From NCBI GenBank assembly GCA_002763225.1, contig PFAI01000030.1:1-25926 (forward strand): a stretch of DNA of 25,926 nt. Reading direction: 5' to 3'. The notes beneath the pieces were generated by a model. That model worked only from the letters and a program-made list of their open reading frames with translations. It was not told the DNA's origin and did not search any database. Source of the stretch: Candidatus Diapherotrites archaeon CG10_big_fil_rev_8_21_14_0_10_31_34 (lineage in GTDB: Archaea > Iainarchaeota > Iainarchaeia > Iainarchaeales > 1-14-0-10-31-34). The position numbers were made by a program, and so were the translations under genes. Shown here one piece after another: positions 166 to 22,072 of this stretch; positions within the stretch are counted from its first letter, which is position 1; every line of letters begins with the position of its first letter.

Positions 166-3100
166 ATGGAAAAAACCGAAATTTTAACTGAAACAGAAGA
201 AAATCCTTTTGTTGTAAAATTTGAACAATTTTTTGTTCAAAAATATAAAAAACAAATTGAAAGGCTTGCTTCAGTTTATCCTGAAAAAAAATCTTTGGAA
301 GTAAATTTCAAGGAACTCGAAGAATTTGATTTTGAATTAGCTGACTCTTTATTAGAGAATCCTGATTACCTGCTTGAAGCCGCTCAATTAGGAATCAAAA
401 ACATTGATGTGCCTATATTAGAAACAGAAAACTTTGAACCATTCATTAGATTTTATAATCTGCCAAAAGACAGCCAGCCATTGCTTAAAGATATTGGTGC
501 GATTCATTTAGGAAAATTAATTTCAGTTGAAGGAGTAATAAGACAGATAACAGAAGTTCTTCCAAGATTAAAAGTTGCTAAATGGGAATGCAGAAGCTGC
601 GGCAACACATACAAAATTCATCAGTCAGGCACAACTCCGCAGCAGCCTGTTTTATGTGAATGCAAAAGAAAAGATTTTAGATTACTCGCTGAATCAAGTG
701 AATTCATTGACAGCCAAAAAATTGAAATCCAGGAACCATTAGAGCATTTAAAGGGTTCAGACCAGGCAGTAAATTTAGAAGTTTATGCAACAAATGATTT
801 AGTTAATAAAGTTTCAGCCGGAGACAGAACAAGAATAACAGGAATGCTTAGATTAAGGCCTCCAAAAGAAAAAAAATTAGTGTTTACAAGATTTTTAGAT
901 GTACTTCATTTAGAGGAAACAGCAAGAGAATTTGAAGACGTGGAAATAAGCAAGGAAGAAGAAGAAAAAATAAGGGAGTTAGCAAAAAAACCTGAAATAT
1001 ATGAACTGTTAACTCAAAGCATTGCACCAGCAATTTATGGGCATGAAAGAGTAAAAGAAGCAATAGTGTTTCAGTTATTCGGAGGAGTGAAAAAAAATCT
1101 TCCCGGAAAAGCCACTATAAGAGGAAATATTCATGTTTTATTAGTTGGAGACCCAGGTGTTGCAAAATCCCAGATCTTAATGGCAGTAAATAATATTGCA
1201 CCAAAAGCAATTTATGTTGCAGGAAAAACTTCTAGTGGAGTAGGGTTATGTGTTTCCCCTGAATCAATGATTTTAAATGACAATGGATTTAAAGAAATTG
1301 GAAAATTTATTGAAGAAAGATTTGATGAAAAAAAAGCAATTGAAGAAGCTGAAGGAATTAAATACAATGAAGTCTCTATGGAAACTTTTGCATTAAACAA
1401 TTCTCTGAAAACTGAAAGAAAAAACCTTTCAAAAATCTGGAAAATCAATGCACCAGAAAAAATGACAAGAATTAAACTCCAAAGTGGGAAATTTATTGAA
1501 ATAACCCCAAACACAAAAATGCTCAGAATAAAAGAAGGAAAAGTGGAATGGATTAAATCAATGGAAATTCAGGAAAAAGACTTTGTTGCAAGTGCAAGAG
1601 AACTTCCTGAAGGATTAAACAAACCAGTTTACTCAATTGAAGTTTTAAGCAAAGATAAAAACACAAGAATAAAAGACAATGTTTCAGAGACAATGCAAAA
1701 AATAACTGACAAACTGGCTGAAAAATATGGAAGCATTCAAAAGGTTACCAAAAAATACGGATTAAGAAGAGATAATCTTTATTTTTGGCGTTCAAAAAAA
1801 CTTTACACAGGAATGCCCTTAAATTTGTTCTTTAAAATGGGATTAAACGCAGAGTTTGAAAAAGAATTTCTTTCAAAACAAGTTAAAACAGTTTTCAACA
1901 GATATGGAAAAAACATTTTAATACCTCAAGCATTGAATAACAAAAAATTATGTTATTTAGCAGGGCTTGTTTTTGGAGACGGAAGCATTTACTTGACAAA
2001 AGAAAATCAGGCAGGAATAAGATTTTATAATTCTGATAAAGAACTGTTAAAAGAATTTGACAAAATAATTTTTGAATTATTTGGATTAAAAACTGAAAAA
2101 TTAAATGAAAAAGATAAAGTGCCTGGAAGACGCATTAATTCAGTTACTGTTTGGAAACTGCTAAAAGAATTTGGGTTAAGCAACAAAAAAATTGAAAACA
2201 AATTATCTCATTTCTGCACAGAACAAAGCAATGAATTGCTTTCAAATGTTTTGAAAGGATTATATGACACTGACGGATACACTTCAAAAAGCAGTTCACC
2301 TCATGTTGGGTTAACAACAATAAGCAAAAAACTTGCTTTGACTGTCCAGTTATCCCTTTTAAAGTTTGGAATCCAGTCAAAAGTAAGAGAAAGAAAAAAA
2401 GAAGGAGTAATCGCAAAAGGAAAAAATATAACAGTAAAAAGCAATCATAACCAGTTTTATATTGAAAGCAGAGGCAAAAAAAATCTTGAATTATTTTACA
2501 AAAAAATAGGGTTTGGTCTTAAAAGAAAAAATAAATCGCTTAAAGGGATAATTGAAAAAATTCCAATAAGCAATCCAAACATTGATGTTGTTCCTGAAAT
2601 AAGTTCTCTGCTGAAAGAAATCAGAGCAACCAGAAATTATAATCCAACTCAAGAAAAATTAAAAGAATTAATTAAAAACAAAAAAAATGAATTGCTTGAA
2701 TTTTTATCAGAATCAAATGTTGTCTGGGAACAAGTTAAATCAAAAGAATTCTTTAAACCGGAATACAATTTTGTTTATGATTTTACTGTTGAAAACTCGC
2801 ATAATTTTATTGCAAATGGGATAATTGTCCACAATACGGCTTCTGCAGTAAAAGATGATTTTGGCGAAGGAGGCTGGACATTAAAAGCAGGGGCATTAGT
2901 TTTGGCTTCAGGAGGTTTAGCTAACATTGATGAATTTGATAAAATGGATAAAGAAGACAGGAGTGCAATGCATGAAGCAATGGAACAGCAAATGGTTTCA
3001 ATTGCTAAAGCAGGAATTGTAACCAGATTTAAAACTGAAACTTCAATTCTTGCCGCAGCCAATCCAAAGTTTTCAAGATTTGATCCATATGAACCATTTA

Positions 3101-3849
3101 TCAAACAAATTGATTTGCCTTCAACTTTGATTTCAAGATTTGATTTATTTTTTATGATCAGAGATGTATTAGATAAAGTTAAAGATGAAGAAATCACTGC
3201 AAGCATTCTGAAAACACATAAAGCCGGAGAAATGATGCTTCAAAAAGGAAAAAGAGGAAAAAAAGAAACAGATGAAATGGAAGAACTCAAAAAACTTATT
3301 ACTCCTGCAATTGATACTGAATTACTGAAAAAATATATTTCTTTTGCAAGACAAAAGATTTCTCCAGTGTTAAGCGCTGAAGCAATTAAAACTTTAACTG
3401 ACTTTTATTTGGGGTTAAGAGAAATGGGAAAAAAAGAAGGAAGTTATGCTGCAACCCACAGGCAATTAGAAGGATTAGTCAGATTAAGCGAGGCAAGCGC
3501 CAGAGTAAGGTTAAGTGATACAATAGAAAAAAGCGATGCAGAAAAAGCAGTAAAATTACTGAAGAATTCCTTGCAGGATGTAGTAACTGATCCTGAAACA
3601 GGCAGAATTGACATGGATATAATTAATATCGGGACAACTCACTCTAAATTGACTGCATTAAGAAATGTGCTGAATATTGTAAGACAAAAATCAAAAGAAC
3701 AGGATTTGGTTCCAATAATTGAAGTAATAGAAGAAGCAAAAACACTTGGATTAGAAAAAGAAAGAGTAAATGAAATAATTTCAGAACTAAAAAGAAAAGG
3801 CGAATTATACGAGAAAAAACACGGCTTTATTTCTCCGGTAGAAAAATAA
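166..3849 (+). CDS. mcm: Replicative helicase MCM, intein-containing (about 698 aa after splicing)
   Basis: Zn finger CRSC...CEC, Walker A GDPGVAKS, Walker B IDEFDKM, AAANP sensor, SRFD arginine finger, C-terminal winged-helix-like region. Confidence 0.97.
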   Translation: MEKTEILTETEENPFVVKFEQFFVQKYKKQIERLASVYPEKKSLEVNFKELEEFDFELADSLLENPDYLLEAAQLGIKNIDVPILETENFEPFIRFYNLPKDSQPLLKDIGAIHLGKLISVEGVIRQITEVLPRLKVAKWECRSCGNTYKIHQSGTTPQQPVLCECKRKDFRLLAESSEFIDSQKIEIQEPLEHLKGSDQAVNLEVYATNDLVNKVSAGDRTRITGMLRLRPPKEKKLVFTRFLDVLHLEETAREFEDVEISKEEEEKIRELAKKPEIYELLTQSIAPAIYGHERVKEAIVFQLFGGVKKNLPGKATIRGNIHVLLVGDPGVAKSQILMAVNNIAPKAIYVAGKTSSGVGLCVSPESMILNDNGFKEIGKFIEERFDEKKAIEEAEGIKYNEVSMETFALNNSLKTERKNLSKIWKINAPEKMTRIKLQSGKFIEITPNTKMLRIKEGKVEWIKSMEIQEKDFVASARELPEGLNKPVYSIEVLSKDKNTRIKDNVSETMQKITDKLAEKYGSIQKVTKKYGLRRDNLYFWRSKKLYTGMPLNLFFKMGLNAEFEKEFLSKQVKTVFNRYGKNILIPQALNNKKLCYLAGLVFGDGSIYLTKENQAGIRFYNSDKELLKEFDKIIFELFGLKTEKLNEKDKVPGRRINSVTVWKLLKEFGLSNKKIENKLSHFCTEQSNELLSNVLKGLYDTDGYTSKSSSPHVGLTTISKKLALTVQLSLLKFGIQSKVRERKKEGVIAKGKNITVKSNHNQFYIESRGKKNLELFYKKIGFGLKRKNKSLKGIIEKIPISNPNIDVVPEISSLLKEIRATRNYNPTQEKLKELIKNKKNELLEFLSESNVVWEQVKSKEFFKPEYNFVYDFTVENSHNFIANGIIVHNTASAVKDDFGEGGWTLKAGALVLASGGLANIDEFDKMDKEDRSAMHEAMEQQMVSIAKAGIVTRFKTETSILAAANPKFSRFDPYEPFIKQIDLPSTLISRFDLFFMIRDVLDKVKDEEITASILKTHKAGEMMLQKGKRGKKETDEMEELKKLITPAIDTELLKKYISFARQKISPVLSAEAIKTLTDFYLGLREMGKKEGSYAATHRQLEGLVRLSEASARVRLSDTIEKSDAEKAVKLLKNSLQDVVTDPETGRIDMDIINIGTTHSKLTALRNVLNIVRQKSKEQDLVPIIEVIEEAKTLGLEKERVNEIISELKRKGELYEKKHGFISPVEK
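1249..2835 (+). mobile_element. Intein (529 aa) with LAGLIDADG homing endonuclease, inserted in MCM at SSGVGL|TASA
   Basis: Begins with Cys (CVSPES), ends VYDFTVENSHNFIANGIIVHN followed by Thr+1; LAGLIDADG blocks YLAGLVFGDG and LKGLYDTDG; removal restores the MCM motif GL-TA. Confidence 0.95.
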
Positions 3850-3908: not shown

Positions 3909-4163
3909 ATGGTTGATGCAAGAGTTTCCTTAAACCATTATTCAAATAAGGTTTTAGCAGTAGTTAAAGCAAAATATGAATTAAAAGACAAAAGCGAGGC
4001 ATTAAATAAATTTATTGATGCTTACGGAGAAAATGAAGTTGAAAAAGAAGTAAAAGAAAGTTATATTAAAAAAATTCTTAAAATTGAAAAAGATCATATT
4101 AAAAAATATGGGTACAGACACACCAGCATACAGGAGTTAAGAAAAGAAATCGAAGGCAAATAA
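3909..4163 (+). CDS. Putative antitoxin, DUF2683-like
   Basis: 84 aa, SD GAGGGG; motif VLAVVKAKYELKDKSEALNKFI; abuts a RelE-like gene. Confidence 0.75.
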   Translation: MVDARVSLNHYSNKVLAVVKAKYELKDKSEALNKFIDAYGENEVEKEVKESYIKKILKIEKDHIKKYGYRHTSIQELRKEIEGK

Positions 4164-4442
4164 ATGTTAAAACACGATTTTTCAGAAAAACTAAAAACAA
4201 AAATGAAAGAATTGTTTAGAAGGGATAAAAGAAGATATAATATACTACTAAAAAAAATACAACAAATATCTGACTCAGATGAATTTTCAATTGAGCATTA
4301 CAAGAATTTAAAGCATGATTTGAAAAATGAAAAAAGAGTTCACATAGATAAAAGCTTTGTTTTGACTTTCAACTACACTAAAGAAAAAAATTTTATTTTA
4401 TTTCTGGATTTTGATCATCACGACAATATCTATAAAAAATAA
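4164..4442 (+). CDS. RelE/ParE/YafQ-superfamily toxin
   Basis: 92-aa basic protein with HYKNLKHDL..KRVHIDKSFVL..DFDHHDNIY; starts immediately after the antitoxin stop. Confidence 0.8.
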   Translation: MLKHDFSEKLKTKMKELFRRDKRRYNILLKKIQQISDSDEFSIEHYKNLKHDLKNEKRVHIDKSFVLTFNYTKEKNFILFLDFDHHDNIYKK

Positions 4443-4463: not shown

Positions 4464-5303
4464 ATGAATAAAAAATTAATGCTTCAATTGATTGGATTGT
4501 TTTTGATTACTCAAATGCTTGGGTTATTTGTCGGAACAAATTTAATTGCATCAGGATTAGAAAGAGAAGGAATAGTAAACGACAATCCAGATGATCCGAT
4601 TAATTCAGTTGGATTATTTGTTTACATTCTGGGTTTTACAGGAATACTTTTAATTGTATTAAAATTCTATAAAGGAGATTTATTGTTTAAATTGCTTGAA
4701 GCAATGCTTGTTTTTTTGACTTCAGTGATTGTGTTTGGTTTTTTAATTCCAGAAGAAATAGGATTGCTTGCATTAATTCTTCCATTAGGAATAGTAATTG
4801 CAAGATTTGTTTTCAGAAAAAACATTTGGTTAAGAAATTTAGCTTCAGTTTTAGCTGCGGCAGGAGCAGGACCATTAATCGGCTACAATTTTGGAATAAT
4901 TCCTGTATCATTATTTTTGGTTATTCTTGCAGGATATGATATTATTGCAGTTTTTTATACAAAGCACATGGTTACTTTAGCTAATGCAATAGTAAAAAAA
5001 AATCTGGCTTTTACTTTTGCTTTGCCTACAACAGAACACCAGTTTGAATTAGGAACAGGAGACATGGTTATTCCATTAGTTTTTGCTGTAAGCGTTTTAG
5101 TTGAAACCACAAAAAGTTTTAGTTTTCCTTTTGCATTGATTTCACCTTTAATAGTTTTATGGGGGTCTTTAATTGGTTTATTATTAACAATTCATTATAG
5201 TTCAAAAAATGTCGGCCAGGCTCTTCCGGCATTACCTTTACAGACAATAATAATGTTTGTAATGCTTGGATTATGCACTGCAATGAAAGTATTTATTTTC
5301 TAA
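4464..5303 (+). CDS. Presenilin/signal-peptide-peptidase-like GxGD intramembrane aspartyl protease
   Basis: Many hydrophobic segments with YD (GYDIIAV), LGTGD and PALP motifs in canonical order. Confidence 0.92.
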   Translation: MNKKLMLQLIGLFLITQMLGLFVGTNLIASGLEREGIVNDNPDDPINSVGLFVYILGFTGILLIVLKFYKGDLLFKLLEAMLVFLTSVIVFGFLIPEEIGLLALILPLGIVIARFVFRKNIWLRNLASVLAAAGAGPLIGYNFGIIPVSLFLVILAGYDIIAVFYTKHMVTLANAIVKKNLAFTFALPTTEHQFELGTGDMVIPLVFAVSVLVETTKSFSFPFALISPLIVLWGSLIGLLLTIHYSSKNVGQALPALPLQTIIMFVMLGLCTAMKVFIF

Positions 5304-6562
5304 CAGTTATTTTTCTCAAATTCTTTCATTAAGCCATTATTTTCTTCTGAATAAAACTGCCTGCATAAATTGTAAATATACAATCTTCCTTCTGGCAAAA
5401 CATTAATTTTGTTTTTCTTAACTGAAATCATTTTTTCTTTAGATAAAAAAGTTATTTGTTTTTCAAAAACTTTATTTAATTCAACTCCAAATTTTTCTTT
5501 AAAAATCTCTGAATTAATTTCAAGTGAAAGCAAACCCTTAATCATAAACCTTTCCATCTGTTCTTTTTTAGTTAATTTTTTTCCTGCTTCAACTGCAAAA
5601 CCATTTTCAGCTTCTTCAAGATATTTTTCAAGATTAAGTGAATTCCTGAATTCAAAGTCATTGAAATGAGAAAAAGCCCCGCAACCTAAACCAATTACTT
5701 CTCCTGAAAGAGTTTGCTTTGCATAACTGCTTTCTTTTCCTTTTAATGCAAACTGGTCAATTAAATATCTTTTGAATCCTTTTTTTCCAAGAAGTTTATC
5801 AGACAAAAACAGCATTTCTTTTTCTTTTTCAAAAGAAGGAATTTCCCCCAAAATTTTTCTTTCCTTTAAAGCAAAAAAAACTGTTCCCGGAACAACATCC
5901 AAAGCATAAGTGGTTAAATGAGAAACCTTAAGTTTTGTTGCTTTAATTAAATCAGTTTGCCAGTCAGACAAAGTCTGTTCAGGCAAAGCATACATTAAAT
6001 CAAGATTAATACTATTAAAATAATTTTTTGCGAGATTAACTGCATTAACTGCTTTAACTGAGTCATGAGCAGTTCCAAGTTTTTTAAGAAATTTATCATT
6101 AAATGACTGTATTCCAAAACTAATTCTGTTAAATCCTGCTTTTTTCAGCTGTTTTAACTTTTGTTCATCAACACTTGAAGGATTGGCTTCAACTGTAATC
6201 TGAATGCCTTCCAAAAAAACAAAATGATTTCTGCAAAAGGAAAGAATTTCGGTTAACTGTTTTGCTGAAAGAAAAGAAGGAGTGCCTCCCCCAAAAAAAA
6301 CAGAAGAAACAGCATAATTACTCAACGCATTCTGGGAAGAAATAAATTTAATTTCTTTTTTCAAGGCAGAAACATACTGAATAATTTTTTGTTTTTTGGA
6401 AAGATATTTAGTATAAGGACAGAAAAAACACAGCCTTTCACAAAAAGGAATATGGATATATAATCCAATCCTTTTTTTTTCAAAAATTTCTTTGCCTTTA
6501 ACAGGAAAAAGAAAAGGCGGATAATTATAGAACCTGCTTTTATCTCTTTTTAGTTTAGTCAT
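5300..6562 (-). CDS. HemN-like radical SAM enzyme, function unassigned
   Basis: LYIHIPFCERLCFFC (CxxxCxxC), FFGGGTPS, EANP, RISFGIQSF, DLMYALPEQT; HemN_C-like tail; lacks HemW HNxxYW and HemN RNFQGY motifs. Confidence 0.9.
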   Translation of the reverse strand: MTKLKRDKSRFYNYPPFLFPVKGKEIFEKKRIGLYIHIPFCERLCFFCPYTKYLSKKQKIIQYVSALKKEIKFISSQNALSNYAVSSVFFGGGTPSFLSAKQLTEILSFCRNHFVFLEGIQITVEANPSSVDEQKLKQLKKAGFNRISFGIQSFNDKFLKKLGTAHDSVKAVNAVNLAKNYFNSINLDLMYALPEQTLSDWQTDLIKATKLKVSHLTTYALDVVPGTVFFALKERKILGEIPSFEKEKEMLFLSDKLLGKKGFKRYLIDQFALKGKESSYAKQTLSGEVIGLGCGAFSHFNDFEFRNSLNLEKYLEEAENGFAVEAGKKLTKKEQMERFMIKGLLSLEINSEIFKEKFGVELNKVFEKQITFLSKEKMISVKKNKINVLPEGRLYIYNLCRQFYSEENNGLMKEFEKNNC

Positions 6563-6588
6563 TTATTCCCCTGAAATAAATAGAATAA

Positions 6589-6615
6589 AAAGGAATAGAA
6601 TAAATCTAATCCTTT
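6589..6615 (-). other. Stem-loop between the peptide gene and the radical SAM gene
   Basis: AAAGGA-T-TAGA-[TTTAT]-TCTA-T-TCCTTT, 10 bp with one mismatch, followed by a T-rich run. Confidence 0.55.
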
Positions 6616-6617
6616 AT

Positions 6618-6677
6618 TCAGCCCATAAAATGGACAAAATCTGCTTTTAACTTTTTGACGACATTGTTTGGATTCAC
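6618..6677 (-). CDS. 19-aa peptide MNPNNVVKKLKADFVHFMG, candidate RiPP precursor or leader peptide
   Basis: Near-perfect SD GGAGGTG (6689-6683) 5 nt before GTG; TGA stop at 6620-6618; BRE/TATA upstream; not in the ORF track. Confidence 0.7.
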   Translation of the reverse strand: MNPNNVVKKLKADFVHFMG

Positions 6678-6728
6678 TTAAACACCTCCCTGATTCCTAG
6701 AACAAGAAAAAATATTTGTTAAACAAGT

Positions 6729-6743
6729 ATTTTAAACATTTCG
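6729..6743 (-). promoter_or_regulatory. BRE-TATA for the peptide-radical SAM transcript
   Basis: Minus strand CGAAATG-TTTAAAAT about 50 nt upstream of the peptide start. Confidence 0.5.
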
Positions 6744-6759
6744 TAAAAAAAAAGGCAAA

Positions 6760-6778
6760 TAATACGAAAAACGTATTA
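6760..6778. promoter_or_regulatory. Palindromic operator, likely Lrp/LysM-type binding site
   Basis: TAATACG-AAAAA-CGTATTA perfect 7-bp inverted repeat between divergent promoters; ACG-N5-CGT core resembles archaeal Lrp-family sites. Confidence 0.7.
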
Positions 6779-6809
6779 CCTTAAATAATTTTCGTTATAT
6801 TTTTACGTT

Positions 6810-7223
6810 ATGGATAAATTGGATTTAAAAATAATTAAAATTCTGGAAAGAAACGGAAGGGCCAGCAACACAGAAATAGCAAAAAAAACAAATGTTTCAG
6901 AAGGAACTGTGAGAAAAAGAATTCTTTTTCTGGTAAAAAAAGAAATAATTAAAAGATTTACAATTGATTTAGGGGCAAAAGGAGGTTTTACTGCTTTGAT
7001 TTTAATCAACACAGAACCAAATGTAGTTCTTTCTAAAATCATAAAAAAGATTTGTGCAAGAGAAGGGATTAGGAAAGTATCTGAAGTTGCAGGGGCTTTT
7101 GATTTAGTAGTGGAAATAAGCACCGAATCAGCAGAAAAATTCAATGCAATAATAGACTCAATCAGGACAATAACAAAAATTAAAGATACTCAAAGTTTAA
7201 TAGTGTTAAAAACAAGTTTCTAA
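6810..7223 (+). CDS. Lrp/AsnC family transcriptional regulator, LysM-like
   Basis: N-terminal HTH (GRASNTEIAKKTNVSEGTVRKRI) and C-terminal RAM domain (EVAGAFDLVV); TTAAATAA about 25 nt upstream suggests a leaderless mRNA. Confidence 0.93.
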   Translation: MDKLDLKIIKILERNGRASNTEIAKKTNVSEGTVRKRILFLVKKEIIKRFTIDLGAKGGFTALILINTEPNVVLSKIIKKICAREGIRKVSEVAGAFDLVVEISTESAEKFNAIIDSIRTITKIKDTQSLIVLKTSF

Positions 7224-7711
7224 ATCCCACCAGTAAAAAACTCAATTACTGAAACCCCAAAAAAAGCTAAAATTGAATAACGACAGAATCTTCCAATGAA
7301 TACTGCCGGATAAAATTTTTTTAAATCATATTCAAGCATTCCGGCAATAACTGAAATCAAATCAAAAAGAAATGGAATAAAAGACATTAAAACAATAAAA
7401 CCAAAACCCCATTTAGAAACTTTTTCAGACAAATCATCAATTTTGTTCAGATGTTTATGGTATTTTTCTTCCACTACACTTCTTCCCCCTCTTCCAATAA
7501 AATAGCCTGTTGACTCGCCTATTGATGCGCCTAAAGCAGCAAACAATGCAATCAAAAAAGGATTAAATATTTTTGTCGGAGCAATCAAAAGGATTATCGC
7601 ATCAATCGGCAAAGGCAGAAAAAGAGTTGCATTAGCAATCAATGAAGCCAAAAAAATTCCGATTAAACCATAAGAATTTACAAGAGATTGAAGCAACACT
7701 GAAGCATCCAT
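7220..7711 (-). CDS. DedA/VTT (SNARE-associated, YqaA-like) membrane protein
   Basis: LPLPID, ALGASIGESTGYFIGRGG, PFLFD...AG, F...FIGRFCRY motifs; start ATG 7711 or TTG 7714. Confidence 0.88.
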   Translation of the reverse strand: MDASVLLQSLVNSYGLIGIFLASLIANATLFLPLPIDAIILLIAPTKIFNPFLIALFAALGASIGESTGYFIGRGGRSVVEEKYHKHLNKIDDLSEKVSKWGFGFIVLMSFIPFLFDLISVIAGMLEYDLKKFYPAVFIGRFCRYSILAFFGVSVIEFFTGGI

Positions 7712-7784
7712 CAATAAAACCTTTAAACTAATTCACTACAATGTATTAATATACTTTTTTTATTTAAATAGTTAAGTGAACACA

Positions 7785-8189
7785 ATGGAATATGAAAAAA
7801 TGCTTGAAAGGCTTTATTTAAGCCTTCCGGAACAAACAAAAACAAAAGAAAGATTTGAAATGCCTAAAGTGGAAAGCTTTGTTCAGGGACAAAAAACAAT
7901 AATAAAAAATCATTCAGCTTTACTTAAAGCAATTAACAGAGAAGAAAAACATTTAATGAAATATTTAACTAAAGATTTGGCTGTTCCTGCAAGTATTTCA
8001 GAAGGAAGAATTATTTTAACAGGAAAGTTTTCTGAAACACAAATAAGAAATTCAATTGAAAGTTATGTAAAAGAATTTGTTTTATGCAAGGAATGCGGAA
8101 AGCCTGACACTAAATTCAAAGAAATGAAAGGAATTAAAATGCTTAAATGCGAGGCATGCGGAGCAATGACTCCAATAAAACAATTGTAG
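7785..8189 (+). CDS. eif2b: Translation initiation factor aIF-2 beta subunit
   Basis: YEKMLERLY, ERFEMP, C-terminal CKEC/CEAC zinc ribbon; ATG 7785 preferred over GTG 7776. Confidence 0.95.
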   Translation: MEYEKMLERLYLSLPEQTKTKERFEMPKVESFVQGQKTIIKNHSALLKAINREEKHLMKYLTKDLAVPASISEGRIILTGKFSETQIRNSIESYVKEFVLCKECGKPDTKFKEMKGIKMLKCEACGAMTPIKQL

Positions 8190-8200
8190 AGGGATAAACT

Positions 8201-8509
8201 ATTTTTTATAAAATTCATTCAATTCAACAGCAAAAAGTTTTAGCAGTATGCGACAAAGAATTAAGTGGAAAAATATTAGATGAAGAAATAGGTTTTAAAG
8301 TTAAACCAGAATTTTATGGAACAGAATTGATTTCAGAAGAAGAATTAAAGAAAAAAATAAAAGAAGTTAATTCAGCTAATTTTGTTGGAAAAAAATGTGT
8401 TAAAATTGCATTAAACAAAAAAATTGTTTTAAAAGAAAACATTATTAAAATAAAAGATGTTCCGCACATTCAAATTTATTTCATAGAGGTACTGGAGGAA
8501 AACAAATGA
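8201..8509 (+). CDS. DUF424 family protein (102 aa), apparent ATT start
   Basis: Frame is open upstream of the track's TTG: IFYKIH..KVLAVCDKELSGK..EFYG..ANFVGKKCV..VPHIQI; in-frame TAA at 8195; SD GAGGGA at 8189-8194. Confidence 0.85.
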   Translation: MFYKIHSIQQQKVLAVCDKELSGKILDEEIGFKVKPEFYGTELISEEELKKKIKEVNSANFVGKKCVKIALNKKIVLKENIIKIKDVPHIQIYFIEVLEENK

Positions 8510-8581
8510 ATGAACTGTTTCGTCAGTTCAGTACGATGCACGACCTTTGGTCGGGCTGCACTAGGAGGAAAACAAATGAAT
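8494..8581 (+). repeat. 18-bp direct repeat GGAGGAAAACAAATGAAT (8494-8511, 8564-8581) enclosing two hairpins
   Basis: Exact repeat with 70-nt period; hairpins TGAACTG/CAGTTCA and TGCA-CGACC/GGTCG-ggc-TGCA. Confidence 0.9.
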
Positions 8582-8914
8582 AAACCGCAAAAACCGCAAA
8601 TGACTGAAGAAGAAGCAGTCAGCAGAATCAAAATGCCAAAAAGAAAAGAACTGGAAATGTTTGCTGTAACAACACAATTAGTCGGCGGAGACAAGATTAA
8701 AGCATTATGCGAAGACGGAGTAGAAAGAGTTTGCAGGATTCCTGGAAAACTAAGAAAAAGAGTATGGATTAGAGACGGAGACTTAATTATAGTCAGATTA
8801 TGGGATTTCCAGCCAATCAAAGCAGATGTAGTTTGGAGATATATTAAAGTTCAGACAAACCACTTAAAGAAAAAAGGATTTCTGGATAAACTTCCAATAG
8901 AAGACGGATTCTAA
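8576..8914 (+). CDS. eif1a: Translation initiation factor aIF-1A
   Basis: CEDGVERVCRIPGKLRKRVWIRDGDLIIV..WDFQ..KADVVWRY; SD GGAGG before ATG 8576. Confidence 0.95.
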   Translation: MNKPQKPQMTEEEAVSRIKMPKRKELEMFAVTTQLVGGDKIKALCEDGVERVCRIPGKLRKRVWIRDGDLIIVRLWDFQPIKADVVWRYIKVQTNHLKKKGFLDKLPIEDGF

Positions 8915-9799
8915 ATGAAAAACAAGAAAGGAAAAGAAAATTACGAAAAAAACACTGAATTAAATAATTACGAAGAAGAAGCTGAAAAAAGAAAAAAAAA
9001 TGAAACAAACAACGAATTAAATAAATACGAACAAGAAACTGAAAGAGAAAAACAAGGGAAACGGTTTCCGCAAAAAAAAGTTTCAAAAACTTTTGATAAA
9101 GTTTTTGACAAAGAAACTTTAGACACAATCCATAAAATATCTACGGCAGGTTTATTTGATGTATTAGAGTTTGTGATTTCAACCGGAAAAGAAGCATATG
9201 TTTTTAGATCAACAGACAAAGGCGGAAATTTTCGCGCAGTAAAAATCTACAAAACTTTGACTTCAGATTTTCATAACATGACAAAATACATTGAAGGCGA
9301 CAAACGGTTTAAAAATATTCCAAAAGAAAAAAAAGAAATAGTAATTGAATGGACAAAAAAAGAATTCAAAAATCTTGAAAAATTATCTAAAGCTTATGCA
9401 TCAGTTCCTTATCCAATCGGCTACAAAAACAATGTTTTGGTAATGGAGTTTATCGGAGAAAATGGAGAAGCAAGCAAAACCCTTAAAGAAGCAGGCGTAA
9501 AAGACATGGAAAATGCCTATCAACAAATAGTTGAATTTATTGCCAGAAGCTTTTATTTATCTAATTTAATTCACGCTGATTTAAGCGAATACAACATTTT
9601 AGTTAAAAATTTTGAAGGAAAAGAAAAATTAGTGGTAATTGACGTAGGACAAGCTGTATTGAAAAGTCATCCAAAAGCAGAAGAATTTTTGGGAAGAGAT
9701 CTGAGAAACATTTCAAATTATTTTTCAAAAAAAGGCTTTGAAAAAAGCGAAGAAGAATTAAGAAAAGACATTAGAAAATGGAAAGAAAAATTGGTTTGA
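8915..9799 (+). CDS. rio1: RIO1 atypical Ser/Thr kinase/ATPase (small-subunit biogenesis)
   Basis: ISTGKEAYVF, AVKIY, IHADLSEYNIL, IDVGQAV; conserved position after aIF-1A. Confidence 0.96.
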   Translation: MKNKKGKENYEKNTELNNYEEEAEKRKKNETNNELNKYEQETEREKQGKRFPQKKVSKTFDKVFDKETLDTIHKISTAGLFDVLEFVISTGKEAYVFRSTDKGGNFRAVKIYKTLTSDFHNMTKYIEGDKRFKNIPKEKKEIVIEWTKKEFKNLEKLSKAYASVPYPIGYKNNVLVMEFIGENGEASKTLKEAGVKDMENAYQQIVEFIARSFYLSNLIHADLSEYNILVKNFEGKEKLVVIDVGQAVLKSHPKAEEFLGRDLRNISNYFSKKGFEKSEEELRKDIRKWKEKLV

Positions 9800-9854
9800 T
9801 CAGAGGCAGCCTACACCAAATACAAATAAATACAATTTATTAATCAATTTCTTA

Positions 9855-10376
9855 ATGATTTTTGAAATTGATGTTAGTGGCTCAGATATCCTAAACAAAG
9901 ATACTGTAATAATGGTTGCAGAAAGAAATAATGAAAATATAATGCTTGGCTTCAAAATGACTAAAGAAATAAGGGACACGATTCTTTCAAGGCACGGGCA
10001 AGGGAAATACAAATACCAAAAATCTAACAAAGGCAAAGCCGACTTAAAAACAAGAGTTTATTGTGCGGCAATATATTTAATTTTTAAGGAATTAAAAAGA
10101 CGACACAACATTAAAGAAGTTTCTTTGGAAATTTGCAGGGATTTATCTGGAAGAGAAAAACAAATTAAAGAAATGTTGAAGCAATTACTTGGAACAAAAA
10201 ACAGCAAAAGAGGGCTTGGCTTAAACATTACCGGAATACATTTCACAGAATTAATTAAAGGAAAAAGTTTAGCTGATGAATACGCTTATTTTTTAAGAAG
10301 AGACAGAGTAAACAAACTCACAAATATTTCATGCAAAATTGACTTAGAAGATATTGAAAGTTTCCTAAAACATTAA
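9855..10376 (+). CDS. Hypothetical protein, putative RNase H-fold (DUF3800-like) nuclease
   Basis: Acidic motifs FEIDVSG (N-terminal strand), LEICRD (middle), SLADEYAY (C-terminal helix), spaced like DUF3800 IDESG...D...QLAD; family call is inference. Confidence 0.6.
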   Translation: MIFEIDVSGSDILNKDTVIMVAERNNENIMLGFKMTKEIRDTILSRHGQGKYKYQKSNKGKADLKTRVYCAAIYLIFKELKRRHNIKEVSLEICRDLSGREKQIKEMLKQLLGTKNSKRGLGLNITGIHFTELIKGKSLADEYAYFLRRDRVNKLTNISCKIDLEDIESFLKH

Positions 10377-10474
10377 AAAAATAGAAGTGCGACAAGAACC
10401 TCCACTAAAGGAAATTGAAACTCCTATTCTGCCCTTCAGGACTGGTTACCTGCCGAACTCGATAGCAATGCCAC
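10375..10474 (-). ncRNA. Putative ~100-nt structured ncRNA convergent with the 9855-10376 gene
   Basis: GC-enriched non-coding island; BRE-TATA upstream; 7-T run at the 3' end; end pairing GTGGCA/TGTCGC; hairpins GTCC-TGAA-GGGC and AGGAG-TTTCAAT-TTCCT. Confidence 0.6.
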
Positions 10475-19025: not shown

Positions 19026-20243
19026 TTATTTTTCCAGCAGGAATTCAATTGATTTATCTATATCTTCGTCAGCCAGTAATTCAAAAAATCTTTGGATGTC
19101 AAAGTTTTTATCAAAAGAAGTCTCAGAAAGATTTTTTTCAAGCATTTCAATTCCTAAAGCAGAAACAGATTTCTTTGTTTTATGCAAGTCTCTTAATTCC
19201 TGAATTCTTCTTTTGAATTCAACAGAAGAAAAATCCTTGTTAACAGAAAAAATTGCTTTTCCCTGAAACTCGGATAAAACTTTATTTAAATCTACGTCAG
19301 ATTGAGTTAAACCTTTGGCTAAAGTTCCGGTTAATTTAATTCTAATTAAAGGAATTAAATCAGCTCTGTTTTGAGCTAAAAAAACATCAATTTTTGTTTC
19401 TAATCTTTCAAGAATTTGGGCAGGAGTTGCTTCAATAAAAGAAATTTTTTCATAAAAAAGGTTTCTCTGGTTTTTTAATGGAATAAAAAAAGTATTCATT
19501 GACTCAGAATCAATCAATACAATTCCTTTTTGTTTTTCTGATTCAAGTTTTTTCATTTGCGTTGTGATTGTAGAACCAGGCATTAATAATTTGCCTCCAT
19601 CAAAAGCTTTTTCTGCATGCCAATGCAAATGTCCATTAATAATTAAATCAAATCCTTTTGGCAGATTAGAAATTGAAATAGTTGCAGCCATTTCATCCTG
19701 GGTTGGAAGAAATTCCTTAATGGATTGATGCAATAACAAAAAGTTTTTTGCTAAAGGAATTGGATTTGGATTATATAGTTTAAGGACATCTAATGCTTTT
19801 TTTTCTGGAACGCCGCCCATGCCATGAACAGCAACTTTTTCATTGTCTTTTTCTGCAGTTAAATAGTTTGCATGAATGTAAAAAATAAATCCAGCACTTT
19901 CAAGCACTTCAAGAGGATTCTTAAAATCCCTTGAACGCAATTCATGAGTTCCGTGAATTGCAATAACCGGAATTCCCCTGAAAAATAGTTCTTTTCCTTC
20001 TTTTAAAATTCTTACTTCGCTTTTTTTTGCATTTTTTGTCAGCCTGAATAACTCAAATGAATCAAACCATGTTTCAATTAAAGGGATTTTTGAATCAAAA
20101 ATATCTCCAGGCAATAAAATCAGTTCAGCATTATTTTCTATTGCAAGAGCAAAAGCATTTAACGCATTATTTAATGCCTCTTCTTTTCTTTCAGTTTTAT
20201 TGGAAAAACCTAAATGAGTGTCAGAAATAATTGCTATCTTCAT
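19026..20243 (-). CDS. mre11: Mre11/SbcD-family DNA repair nuclease
   Basis: Metallophosphoesterase motifs SDTHLG, GDIFD, HGTHE, LHQ, GHLH, PGS, plus capping-domain region. Confidence 0.88.
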   Translation of the reverse strand: MKIAIISDTHLGFSNKTERKEEALNNALNAFALAIENNAELILLPGDIFDSKIPLIETWFDSFELFRLTKNAKKSEVRILKEGKELFFRGIPVIAIHGTHELRSRDFKNPLEVLESAGFIFYIHANYLTAEKDNEKVAVHGMGGVPEKKALDVLKLYNPNPIPLAKNFLLLHQSIKEFLPTQDEMAATISISNLPKGFDLIINGHLHWHAEKAFDGGKLLMPGSTITTQMKKLESEKQKGIVLIDSESMNTFFIPLKNQRNLFYEKISFIEATPAQILERLETKIDVFLAQNRADLIPLIRIKLTGTLAKGLTQSDVDLNKVLSEFQGKAIFSVNKDFSSVEFKRRIQELRDLHKTKKSVSALGIEMLEKNLSETSFDKNFDIQRFFELLADEDIDKSIEFLLEK

Positions 20244-21130
20244 TTAATCAACTCTAAAATTTCTTTGAATTGCTGTTCAGGATAAAATGTTATTGGAGAG
20301 AAAACAACAAAACCTGTTTTGTCCTGCAATTCACTGATTTCTTTTAATGCTTTGGCTTCATTTCTTTCACTTAAAACCAAAGCAGAAAGAAAATTTCTTT
20401 CTTGTTCTATTGCAGAAAAAGGAATTGATTTTAATTCAGTAAAAGAATTAAACTGAGAGATTAATTCAATATTTGCTTTAATTTTAGAATTATTTTCCCG
20501 GATTATTGGAAAAATATTGCAGCCTCTTTTAAGCATTAAAAAAGCTGAAACTAATTCATCTTTTTTTCCATCCATGATTAAACCAACTTTTCCTTCTACT
20601 CCAACCGGAATGCCTTTTACCCCGGGAATTTTTTCTGAATAAAGAAAAACAGTGTTTTGGATTACATCAGCAAAAATTTCTTTTGAAGGACTTGAAAGAT
20701 TTACTTTTAATCCTTTAATTTCATCCATTATTTTTTGTCCTACTTCAACTGCAATATCCTGAGAAGAAAAATCGTGTTTTCCGTTTCTTGAAATACGCAA
20801 AGCAAAAGAATCTCCTTTTGAAAGAGTTTTTTTTGCAAAATCAACAAAGATTTCTTTTAAGTCCTGCATTGAATTAAAAGTAAAAGGAACAGCAAAAGAA
20901 AAAGAATGGATTCCAAAAACTTTTTGCATTAAAGGAATTGCTTTTATCTGATTATCTGTTTCACAGACAAGAATGCCTGAAAACTTTCCTGAAAGAGTTA
21001 AATTAATGTTTTTTGAGTTAAGTGTTTTCCTTAAATTTGAAACCAATTTTTTAATAAAAAATTGTCTGACAAAATGAGTTTTAAGATAGATTTCTGAAGC
21101 AGGGCGCAAAACTATAATTGATTTATCCAT
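20240..21130 (-). CDS. ThiI-derived THUMP-domain protein with degenerate PP-loop domain
   Basis: SEIYLK..VR, VFGIHSFS, SFALRISR.GKHDFSS, KVNLSSP, GVKGIPVGVEGK; PP-loop SGGIDS replaced by DGKKDE. Confidence 0.88.
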   Translation of the reverse strand: MDKSIIVLRPASEIYLKTHFVRQFFIKKLVSNLRKTLNSKNINLTLSGKFSGILVCETDNQIKAIPLMQKVFGIHSFSFAVPFTFNSMQDLKEIFVDFAKKTLSKGDSFALRISRNGKHDFSSQDIAVEVGQKIMDEIKGLKVNLSSPSKEIFADVIQNTVFLYSEKIPGVKGIPVGVEGKVGLIMDGKKDELVSAFLMLKRGCNIFPIIRENNSKIKANIELISQFNSFTELKSIPFSAIEQERNFLSALVLSERNEAKALKEISELQDKTGFVVFSPITFYPEQQFKEILELIK

Positions 21131-21218
21131 TAAATAAAATAAAAGAGAAAAAGTTAAAACACAATCTAATTATACATAATTTATTGTGTGTTTTACATCA
21201 AATAAAAGAAAAAAAGGT

Positions 21219-21380
21219 TTAGCTGTATTTTGACACACTAAAACCTAATGCGCCTATTCCACCCCACATTACTGCTAAGGCACCCCAATTTGCGGCATAA
21301 GGACTCCAAATCCAGGCTACACCAATTGCAAAAAGAATTAAACCAAAAACAATGCTGGCTTTTTTCACAAATTCGCTCAT
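21219..21380 (-). CDS. 53-aa two-TM membrane protein MSEFVKKASIVFGLILFAIGVAWIWSPYAANWGALAVMWGGIGALGFSVSKYS
   Basis: SD GGAGGG 5 nt before ATG, helical-hairpin hydropathy, T-rich run after the stop; below the ORF-track cutoff. Confidence 0.8.
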   Translation of the reverse strand: MSEFVKKASIVFGLILFAIGVAWIWSPYAANWGALAVMWGGIGALGFSVSKYS

Positions 21381-21463
21381 TAAATCCCTCCAAAAACTAA
21401 AATAATGATATTAATAACATTTTTTGATTAATAAACCTTTGTGTTTTAAGAGTTAAATTGTCT

Positions 21464-22072
21464 TTAGTTTATTTGTTTTTCAAATTCAATAAACAGTTTT
21501 TCGGTTAAATCATTTAATCCTGCTTTAAGTTCTTCTTCTAACACTTTTTTTTGAAGTGATTTGGTTGCAGGCTTGTCTGGGCCTAATGCATCACAGGTTT
21601 CTGGTCCGACAGAAAGATTATAAGTATCAAGTTTTTTTGCTAAATCAATTATTTCTTGTTTATCCATTCCAAGCAATGGCCTTATCACAGGAATTTTAAG
21701 TCCAAAAGAAATTGAAACTAAATTCTCTAAAGTCTGGGATGAAACCTGCCCTAAATTTTCTCCTGTAACAATTAAATCAAACTTGTGTTTTTCACAGATT
21801 TTTTCAGCTGTTTTCAGCATTAAACGCTTCATTAAAATAAAATAAAATTTTCTTTCAGTTTTATTCACAATCTGCTGTAATGCATCAGAAAAATCTATTG
21901 AAATAAATCTTGAATTCAGTTTTTCAGCTAATTTCTCTGATTTTTCAACTGACTGTTTCCCTGTTATTTTAACTGAAGAAAAATGCAGGCAGGTAATTTC
22001 TGTTTTATCTTTAATTAAAAATCCTGCTACAGGACTGTCAATTCCTCCGCTTAACAAAAGCAATGACTTCAT
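21464..22072 (-). CDS. thiI: Stand-alone ThiI catalytic (PP-loop) domain, tRNA s4U8 sulfurtransferase-like
   Basis: LLSGGIDSPVA, TGENLGQVSSQTLENL, IRPLLGMDKQEII, PETCD; no THUMP or rhodanese domain. Confidence 0.88.
   Translation of the reverse strand: MKSLLLLSGGIDSPVAGFLIKDKTEITCLHFSSVKITGKQSVEKSEKLAEKLNSRFISIDFSDALQQIVNKTERKFYFILMKRLMLKTAEKICEKHKFDLIVTGENLGQVSSQTLENLVSISFGLKIPVIRPLLGMDKQEIIDLAKKLDTYNLSVGPETCDALGPDKPATKSLQKKVLEEELKAGLNDLTEKLFIEFEKQIN

Follow-up and report, generated by a model that had tools for sequence, protein, structure and literature searches.

We propose that block 5304-7223 of a stretch of DNA from Candidatus Diapherotrites archaeon CG10_big_fil_rev_8_21_14_0_10_31_34 (contig PFAI01000030.1, 25,926 nucleotides, referred to in its full length as the window) is probably a portable three-gene module. 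It would be directed at a product resembling RiPPs (peptides made by the ribosome and modified after translation), or at a peptide-derived metabolite, and it is built on a class C radical S-adenosylmethionine (SAM) enzyme. A peptide of 19 residues would be the substrate of this enzyme, and its invariant heptapeptide DFVHFMG would be the segment undergoing modification or excision. The window is AT-rich archaeal DNA (31% GC) with genes that include MCM with an intein, topoisomerase VI, aIF2-beta, aIF1A and a RIO kinase, and the host genome, with a completeness of 81.5%, was binned from 65 contigs totalling 1.04 Mb. An original prediction, made from the letters of the window, had described the locus accurately. 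All of its elements were found, and on the minus strand they follow one another as a Shine-Dalgarno (SD) sequence, a 19-codon open reading frame (ORF), a hairpin and, 55 nt from the stop codon, a gene for a 420-aa protein with radical SAM and HemN_C domains. The elements of this cassette are the following:

6683..6689, minus strand: Shine-Dalgarno sequence GGAGGTG, 5 nt upstream of the GTG start codon; the related loci read GGGGGTG there
6618..6677, minus strand: putative precursor-peptide gene, 19 codons plus stop, with the GTG start at 6677 and the stop at 6620-6618
6677-6642, minus strand: peptide leader MNPNNVVKKLKA, diverged between loci
6641-6621, minus strand: peptide core DFVHFMG, invariant in three of three loci
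6583..6619, minus strand: stem-loop directly 3' of the peptide stop, followed by a U-rich tract
5300..6562, minus strand: HemN-like radical SAM protein of the class C type, 420 aa, ATG at 6562, presumed to be the peptide maturase

Three distinct loci with a readable context were available for comparison, namely the window, genome G001 (locus L002) and the metagenome contig L032; all upstream contexts come from these three and none from the proteins P0003-P0009. The test set beforehand was the presence of a conserved, SD-led ORF upstream of close homologues of the enzyme, and such an ORF was found in all three loci. In the window, the near-perfect SD GGAGGTG at 6689-6683 precedes the expected 19-codon ORF at 6677-6618, which is opened by GTG at 6677 and encodes VNPNNVVKKLKADFVHFMG followed by the stop codon. 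The orthologous ORFs of L002 (305-367) and L032 (42-104) have 20 codons, are likewise SD-led (GGGGGTG) and encode MNSQLLLEEIGRIDFVHFMG in G001, with the leader MNSQLLLEEIGRI, and MNSQLVLEEIGKIDFVHFMG in L032. GGAGGTG occurs only once in the window, counting both strands, and 12 times in the 1.04-Mb genome. SD pairing is in use in this organism, since 21 of the 48 genomic GAGGTG sites are followed at a distance of 3-9 nt by an ORF of 50 aa or more.

The C-terminal heptapeptide DFVHFMG is identical in the window, G001/L002 and L032, whereas the leader is strongly diverged, and the division into leader and core that had been proposed is thus borne out. Between the window and L032, the core codons differ by three synonymous changes over 3.3 sites and by no non-synonymous change over 17.7 sites. 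In the comparison of the window with G001, the leader has accumulated 16 non-synonymous steps over 28.3 sites. Over the whole ORF, G001 and L032 differ by four synonymous changes over 11.3 sites and two non-synonymous changes over 48.7 sites, corresponding to proportions of synonymous (pS) and non-synonymous (pN) differences of approximately 0.35 and 0.04 and to a pN/pS of approximately 0.12. The two amino-acid changes are conservative (L/V and R/K), and the stop codon changes from TGA to TAA. The changes in these aligned codons follow the pattern of a coding sequence. A search with the back-translated core motif found it in two of 196 genomes of the order, while reversed-pattern controls gave none, and it occurs a single time in the genome of the window. 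The core contains no Cys, Ser or Thr.

With regard to the region following the small ORF, the 66 nt at 6640-6575 of the window fold with -17.7 kcal/mol (z = -4.5), and none of 200 shuffled sequences folds as well. The hairpin originally placed at 6615-6589 is contained in the main stem-loop at 6619-6583. A hairpin is found at the equivalent place in G001/L002 and L032, where it overlaps the FMG codons and the stop and is followed by a U-run, and one of its pairs shows a compensatory change (GGC/GCC in L002 versus GGT/ACC in L032). A scan with a sigma-70 promoter and terminator model, of no relevance for archaeal DNA, gave no call at the hairpin. These structures could also be explained if the small ORF were a regulatory upstream ORF which, together with the hairpin and the U-tract, attenuates a HemW- or HemN-type enzyme whose substrate is not the peptide. 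The hairpin and the U-rich tract are located directly after or over the stop in all three loci, the compensatory change speaks for the structure, and the ORF is very short and lies in the 5' region of the operon. Nevertheless, attenuator peptides are conserved for runs of a sensed amino acid, whereas the feature retained here is an invariant heptapeptide under purely synonymous change. The position and the sequence of the hairpin differ between the window and its relatives while the peptide core remains constant; as the hairpin of the window lies elsewhere and has a different sequence, the conservation of the core is not explained by RNA structure. In addition, an attenuator would leave without a role the PqqD-family chaperone gene and the probable fusion protein that are described below, and we consider this explanation improbable.

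The peptide as substrate agrees better with a further gene found in both relatives. In G001 and L032 (two of the two related loci), an ORF of 87-96 aa is located between the peptide gene and the enzyme gene, and NCBI names its product a "PqqD family peptide modification chaperone". It scores 23.9 bits against the Pfam PqqD family PF05402 (cut-off 23.4), and its best NCBIfam match is the PqqD model TIGR03859 (E = 3e-4 and 2e-3). The structural model of this protein, with a predicted local distance difference test (pLDDT) value of 64.6, shows a beta-beta-beta-alpha-alpha-alpha order, which we take to be the topology of RiPP recognition elements (RREs). A fold search with this low-confidence model gave no hit at E <= 0.001, the best being E = 0.12. 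The top six places were taken by lasso-peptide RREs in complex with leader peptides, and the RRE-bearing CteB and TigE came next, none of them significant. A further homologue of the enzyme, P0009 (514 aa, 42% identity), which belongs to the eight-protein clade described below, is probably a fusion of an RRE-like domain and the enzyme. Its approximately 95 extra N-terminal residues resemble the PqqD ORF of the relatives (BLASTP E = 3e-5; hhalign E = 1.2e-4, probability 55%). An Atlas search with this N-terminus returned scores of at most 0.84, with clusters carrying PqqD on about 10% of their members and MftB at rank 19, and is a lead only. A combined alignment intended for modelling P0009 together with its N-terminus, in which MAFFT had misplaced the short RRE sequences, was left unused.

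The enzyme itself combines a Radical_SAM domain (PF04055, 83.6 bits) with a HemN_C domain (PF06969, 33.1 bits), and its gene starts at ATG 6562 after the predicted 55-nt gap. The CxxxCxxC motif is retained, as had been stated, in the form of C41, C45 and C48, which are invariant in 64 aligned relatives. Its best sequence matches in the PDB are HemN 1OLT (153.2 bits, residues 28-404) and then NocN 9p2u (110.6 bits). Residue Y35 aligns with Y56 of HemN and Y34 of NocN, and D188 with D196 of NocN; both are invariant in the 64 sequences. According to the part of the preprint PMC12871812 that was available, the residues aligned to Y35 and D188 contact the second SAM in NocN and HemN. As both are also conserved in HemW, they do not discriminate between these enzymes.

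Among the best 120 matches of a word-indexed search of 5.8 billion proteins, eight proteins with at least 42% identity constitute a close clade; they are followed by a group of 437-488 aa at 36-39% and then by HemW proteins of 375-380 aa at 35-38%. When 1.84 billion representatives were searched exhaustively with a profile, the two that belong to the clade scored 731 and 666 bits, and the next match scored 491 bits. A tree was built from 52 rows, comprising the eight clade members, ten proteins of the sister group and, out of the 102 other hits, one in three (34 HemW-like rows), with a self-duplicate omitted. In the Shimodaira-Hasegawa-like approximate likelihood ratio test (SH-aLRT), the clade obtained 100, the clade together with its sister group 99, and the split of both from the 34 HemW-like rows 99. 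The clade and the sister group also have in common an N-terminal extension of the RFYNYPP type, which HemW lacks. The original prediction set the enzyme apart from the HemW, HemN and MenK clades; this is what was found for the sampled HemW proteins, in a tree that holds no HemN, ChuW or MenK references.

The distribution of the enzyme is narrow. An orthologue was found in only one of 61 related genomes (G001, 59% identity; the next matches are at 30-36%), and orthologues at E <= 1e-70 are present in two of 215 genomes of the phylum. A scan of the genome collection returned G001 only, and searches of the order, the class and the phylum gave no further close orthologue. Of 245 pattern matches in the metagenome scan, two were relatives, one being the 1.5-kb contig L032 (60% identity) and the other a contig with the window's own sequence. 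Members of the family at a greater distance occur in other settings. HemN-like sister proteins of the same phylum with 30-36% identity adjoin Peptidase_U32-family genes at L003, L004 and L006 (genomes G027, G048 and G035), with NHL-repeat beta-propeller genes also at L003 and L004; none of these three loci has such a peptide, and theirs is a recurrent but different context. Distant HemN-like members with fused extra segments (P0133, P0153, P0168, P0189, P0192, P0200 and P0236) include fusions to DNA_alkylation repair, NUDIX and carboxymuconolactone decarboxylase domains and to a second radical SAM domain, while the extra segments of P0133 and P0189 have no Pfam match or one below threshold. 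The N-terminal fusions of the wider family (DNA_alkylation, NUDIX, carboxymuconolactone decarboxylase and double radical SAM) gave no clue related to peptides.

The enzyme could instead be a divergent HemW heme chaperone or a HemN porphyrin enzyme, and the small ORF an unrelated small protein or a curiosity of gene calling. The top NCBIfam match is indeed the HemW model TIGR00539, at 233.6 bits and above the cut-off of 205.4; NCBI names the G001 orthologue HemW, and the enzyme is 35-38% identical to bona fide HemW proteins over approximately 86% of its length. The description of the enzyme as atypical is to be taken in a relative sense. However, the NCBIfam scores are nearly flat, with ChuW/HutW at 208.9 bits (24.7 bits lower), HemN at 204.9 and STM4012 at 202.4. 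The scanned members of the clade score 225-267 bits on the HemW model, with a margin of approximately 6-41 bits over the next model (ChuW, HemN or STM4012). In contrast, four proteins named HemW or of HemW length reach 285-428 bits, namely two from the Bacillus group (427-428, with a margin of approximately 180), P0030 (331) and P0052 (285). The HNxxYW motif is missing, as predicted, from all eight clade members and is present in six of six proteins named HemW or of HemW length in the same alignment; the enzyme of the window reads SSYAKQTLSG at this position. In the accessible part of a review of HemN-like enzymes (PMC10114718), HNxxYW is proposed to interact with heme.

With respect to HemN, the absence of RNFQGY was also confirmed, as nothing corresponds to this HemN segment when the enzyme is aligned to 1OLT with HMMER. 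The enzyme reads CERLCFFCPY, so that the fourth Cys of HemN is missing, and its score on the HemN model TIGR00538 (204.9 bits) is below the cut-off of 325. No heme genes were seen in the window, in line with the original prediction, and ALAD, porphobilinogen deaminase and cytochrome bd were not found in the genome (81.5% complete). A heme-related enzyme would, moreover, leave unexplained the coding-type conservation of the small ORF and the linked RRE, and it sits poorly with the separation of the clade, with its RFYNYPP extension, from the HemW sample. We therefore regard a divergent HemW or HemN as very unlikely, and return to the peptide-modifying module.

The module behaves as a mobile accessory block, present as an indel. 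The five congeners all share the backbone MCM - SPP - VTT - aIF2-beta, in which SPP and VTT are convergent, 10-30 nt apart and without a cassette between them. In the window, 1920 bp (5304-7223) comprising the enzyme gene, the peptide gene and a divergent regulator gene lie exactly between SPP and VTT. The features of the block beyond the cassette are the following:

6730..6736, minus strand: TATA-like box TTTAAAA, approximately 45 nt upstream of the start codon, candidate promoter
6763..6775, no strand: palindrome TACGTTTTTCGTA in the divergent intergenic region, candidate regulator site
6810..7223, plus strand: Lrp/AsnC-family regulator divergent from the cassette (Pfam HTH_24, HTH_AsnC-type and AsnC_trans_reg)
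5297..5303, no strand: left border repeat TTTCTAA, 7-bp direct repeat of 7217-7223
7217..7223, no strand: right border repeat TTTCTAA, 7-bp direct repeat

The empty site of G004 (L055) reads ATTTTCTAAATC and has a single copy of TTTCTAA, and convergent stop codons overlap in CTAA at both junctions of the block. The repeat may be a target-site duplication or the trace of a microhomology-mediated insertion; no direct or inverted repeat longer than the 7-bp TTTCTAA was found at the ends of the cassette. In G001, the SPP-VTT junction is empty (contig C29) and the cassette of this genome is on another contig, together with the same divergent Lrp/AsnC gene (68% identity over the 53 aa readable there). 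No orthologue of the Lrp gene was found at E <= 1e-20 in G002-G005, the four congeners without the cassette. As the block behaves as an indel and the copy of G001 is located elsewhere with its Lrp gene, the regulator, the peptide gene, the optional RRE gene and the enzyme gene appear to travel together. The sequence AAAT(G/A)TTTAAAA is kept in the alignment of the window and L002, and the TTTAAAA box it contains is the likely promoter of a peptide-enzyme transcript. The palindrome TACGTTTTTCGTA is shared without change by the window and L002, with differing flanks, which is consistent with the binding of a regulator at this site.

Sequence of the window is also found outside the assembly. All or part of the stretch is present in 23 groundwater or aquifer DNA runs and in no RNA run among those listed, and a sequence identical to that of the window recurs in the contigs of several groundwater runs. 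Contigs from four partial-match runs (80% likeness) gave near-identical fragments only, in which the small ORF shows no variants. The presenilin-type SPP adjacent to the block is a conserved backbone gene of all congeners and lies outside the cassette.

Other observations concern the surroundings of the block. A toxin-antitoxin-like pair is located between MCM and SPP (3909-4442, plus strand), one member being an ORF of 84 aa and the other a YafQ-family toxin of 92 aa; the pair is present at this position in G001 and not in G002-G005, and represents a second indel in the backbone. The MCM helicase gene (166-3849, plus strand) carries an intein with a LAGLIDADG homing-endonuclease domain, and Intein_splicing spans residues 369-890. 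Further away (20240-22072, minus strand), ThiI-like functions are distributed over two ORFs in swapped order with a 333-nt gap, the ORF with the PP-loop/ThiI domain (21464-22072) being upstream of the ORF with ferredoxin-like and THUMP domains (20240-21130).

If the module functions as proposed, a strong ribosome-binding site of its own would serve for translation of the peptide. Its stop codon is followed by the hairpin and the U-tract, which would probably stabilise or partly terminate the transcript, such that the peptide is made in excess of the enzyme. With its [4Fe-4S] cluster and SAM, the enzyme would then act on the C-terminal DFVHFMG. The chemistry of other class C radical SAM enzymes suggests, with low confidence, that a methylene or methyl group derived from SAM would most likely be transferred to an sp2 carbon in the side chain of the His or of a Phe. 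In the relatives, a PqqD-type RRE, which is encoded by a separate gene and probably also occurs in fused form, would present the leader to the enzyme. Direct recognition would be required in the genome of the window, which lacks this RRE gene and has a diverged leader. The Lrp/AsnC protein would regulate the divergent promoters. The invariant core and the lack of a linked protease or exporter may point to an intracellular product of small-molecule or cofactor-like nature, as opposed to an antibiotic that is secreted. Co-folding of the enzyme of the window with the 19-aa peptide, the 4Fe-4S cluster and two SAM molecules scored 0.01 against a mark of 0.32, with a peptide smaller than the size for which the method is calibrated, so that the score speaks neither for nor against the proposal.

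Several points weigh against this proposal, in addition to the identity with HemW and the passing of the HemW cut-off. The PqqD call is at its threshold and the fusion call is near threshold. The window cassette has no RRE gene beside it, with a gap of just 55 nt between the peptide and the enzyme, and a local hidden Markov model of the relatives' RRE finds none in the genome of the window, where Pfam gives a single PqqD hit, in a different radical SAM cluster on contig C26. Genes for a leader protease, a transporter or immunity are not linked to the cassette; a protease or an exporter is common rather than universal in RiPP loci. L002 and L032 are close kin, so that the three contexts amount to approximately two independent lineages. 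As the tree contains no HemN, ChuW, MenK or TbtI references, the enzyme may have its place inside another characterised clade.

With the cluster on contig C26 (genome G000, approximately 7261-10471; locus L034, C26:6872-9955, partly masked), the same genome has a further locus that resembles those of RiPPs. Its radical SAM protein has 350 aa and comes closest to the peptide epimerase family YydG (109 bits, cut-off 300); the neighbours are a PqqD-like ORF of 67 aa (Pfam 23 bits), a P-loop protein of 303 aa and an ORF of 356 aa.

The absence of an RRE gene could have another explanation, in which the window copy is a degenerating remnant that lost this gene on transfer into the SPP-VTT junction, leaving the peptide unprocessed and the enzyme idle or recruited elsewhere. 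The RRE gene is present in G001 and L032 and missing in the window, the strong divergence of the window leader (the 16 non-synonymous steps) also weighs against a working module, and an orthologue occurs in just two of the 215 genomes. However, the ORF of the enzyme is intact and retains all 90 residues that are invariant across the eight-member clade, and the peptide keeps its start codon, an unchanged core and an SD stronger than that of the relatives. P0003, which is 81% identical to the enzyme and comes from another sample, shows that the sub-lineage persists, and the identical sequence recurs in the contigs of several groundwater runs. In the available part of PMC12871812, class C RiPP enzymes such as NocN function without a recognisable RRE. 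We consider a remnant unlikely, and the functional module remains our preferred interpretation.

PqqA/D/E and MftA/B/C share with the present system a layout in which a precursor of approximately 20-30 aa with an invariant C-terminus is accompanied by a PqqD-family chaperone and a single radical SAM enzyme, without an exporter. With its invariant core, its variable leader and the lack of a linked protease or exporter, the present module is closer to PqqA and MftA than to bacteriocin-type RiPPs. In contrast, PqqE and MftC are SPASM/twitch enzymes with auxiliary clusters, whereas the enzyme described here is HemN-like and has no SPASM domain; equivalents of PqqB/C/F or MftD/E/F are not linked to the module, and the window has no RRE. 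Both the pyrroloquinoline quinone (PQQ) and the mycofactocin systems appear as existing systems in the references of PMC9062424, as far as this source was accessible.

Among enzymes of the same type, the class C thiopeptide methylases TbtI, PbtM2/M3 and NosN/NocN have the same build of a radical SAM core and a HemN_C domain, and the SAM-contact residues of NocN are matched by Y35 and D188. The substrates of these methylases are precursor peptides of ribosomal origin or derivatives of them, according to the accessible parts of PMC10114718 and PMC11285071. The thiopeptide class C enzymes carry out late tailoring in large bacterial clusters, on thiazole and indolic-acid carbons and without a recognisable RRE (PMC12871812, in the part available). 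The enzyme of the present module would instead be the sole maturase of a peptide of 19-20 residues, with a PqqD-type RRE in the relatives and a host archaeon of approximately 1 Mb. HemW (YggW/RSAD1-type) provides the best-scoring curated model for the enzyme and differs from it by the peptide and RRE context of the cassette and by the fact that no heme-related genes were found in the genome. HemN 1OLT has in common with it the YxHxPFC, GGGTP and NRxS-type motifs and the N-terminal extension. The enzyme differs from HemN in having neither RNFQGY nor the fourth Cys, and no tetrapyrrole pathway was found in the host genome.

To our knowledge, the part played by class C enzymes in ribosomal-peptide chemistry has been confined to late tailoring of bacterial thiopeptides by methylation. 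Recognition elements of the PqqD type partner SPASM-type radical SAM enzymes, among other enzyme types. No description of a HemN-like enzyme coupled to a PqqD-type RRE, or of such a RiPP in DPANN-type archaea, was found in the accessible full-text literature, subscription journals being outside its scope. In the portions of the sources that were available, the terms "RiPP" and "PqqD" do not occur in the review of HemN-like enzymes (PMC10114718), in which only TbtI and NosN are linked to peptides, and "HemN" and "coproporphyrinogen" do not occur in two papers on genome mining with RREs (PMC7470986 and PMC12710340). The class C examples in the accessible part of a 2024 review of RiPP methyltransferases (PMC11285071) are TbtI and the thiopeptide enzymes PbtM2 and PbtM3.

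A bolder proposal, which we put forward as possible if doubtful, is that the module is the founding case of a new RiPP-like class. In this class, a HemN-type class C enzyme, RRE-guided in the relatives and RRE-independent here, would be the sole maturase of a peptide of approximately 20 residues and would make an intracellular cofactor or signal from DFVHFMG. The system would be an archaeal counterpart of PQQ and mycofactocin with a different radical chemistry, encoded by a 1.9-kb block that moves with its own Lrp/AsnC regulator between genome-reduced groundwater archaea. If the proposed module is real, the combination of an RRE, a HemN-like enzyme and a 20-residue peptide would represent a new enzyme-substrate logic in RiPP biology, and a function would be provided for a clade that annotation pipelines currently label "HemW" or "coproporphyrinogen oxidase". 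With one peptide, one enzyme and an optional chaperone, the system would be near the minimum for such a pathway. It would also constitute a rare biosynthetic pathway in a groundwater archaeon of approximately 1 Mb, presumably host-dependent, in which no heme genes were found.

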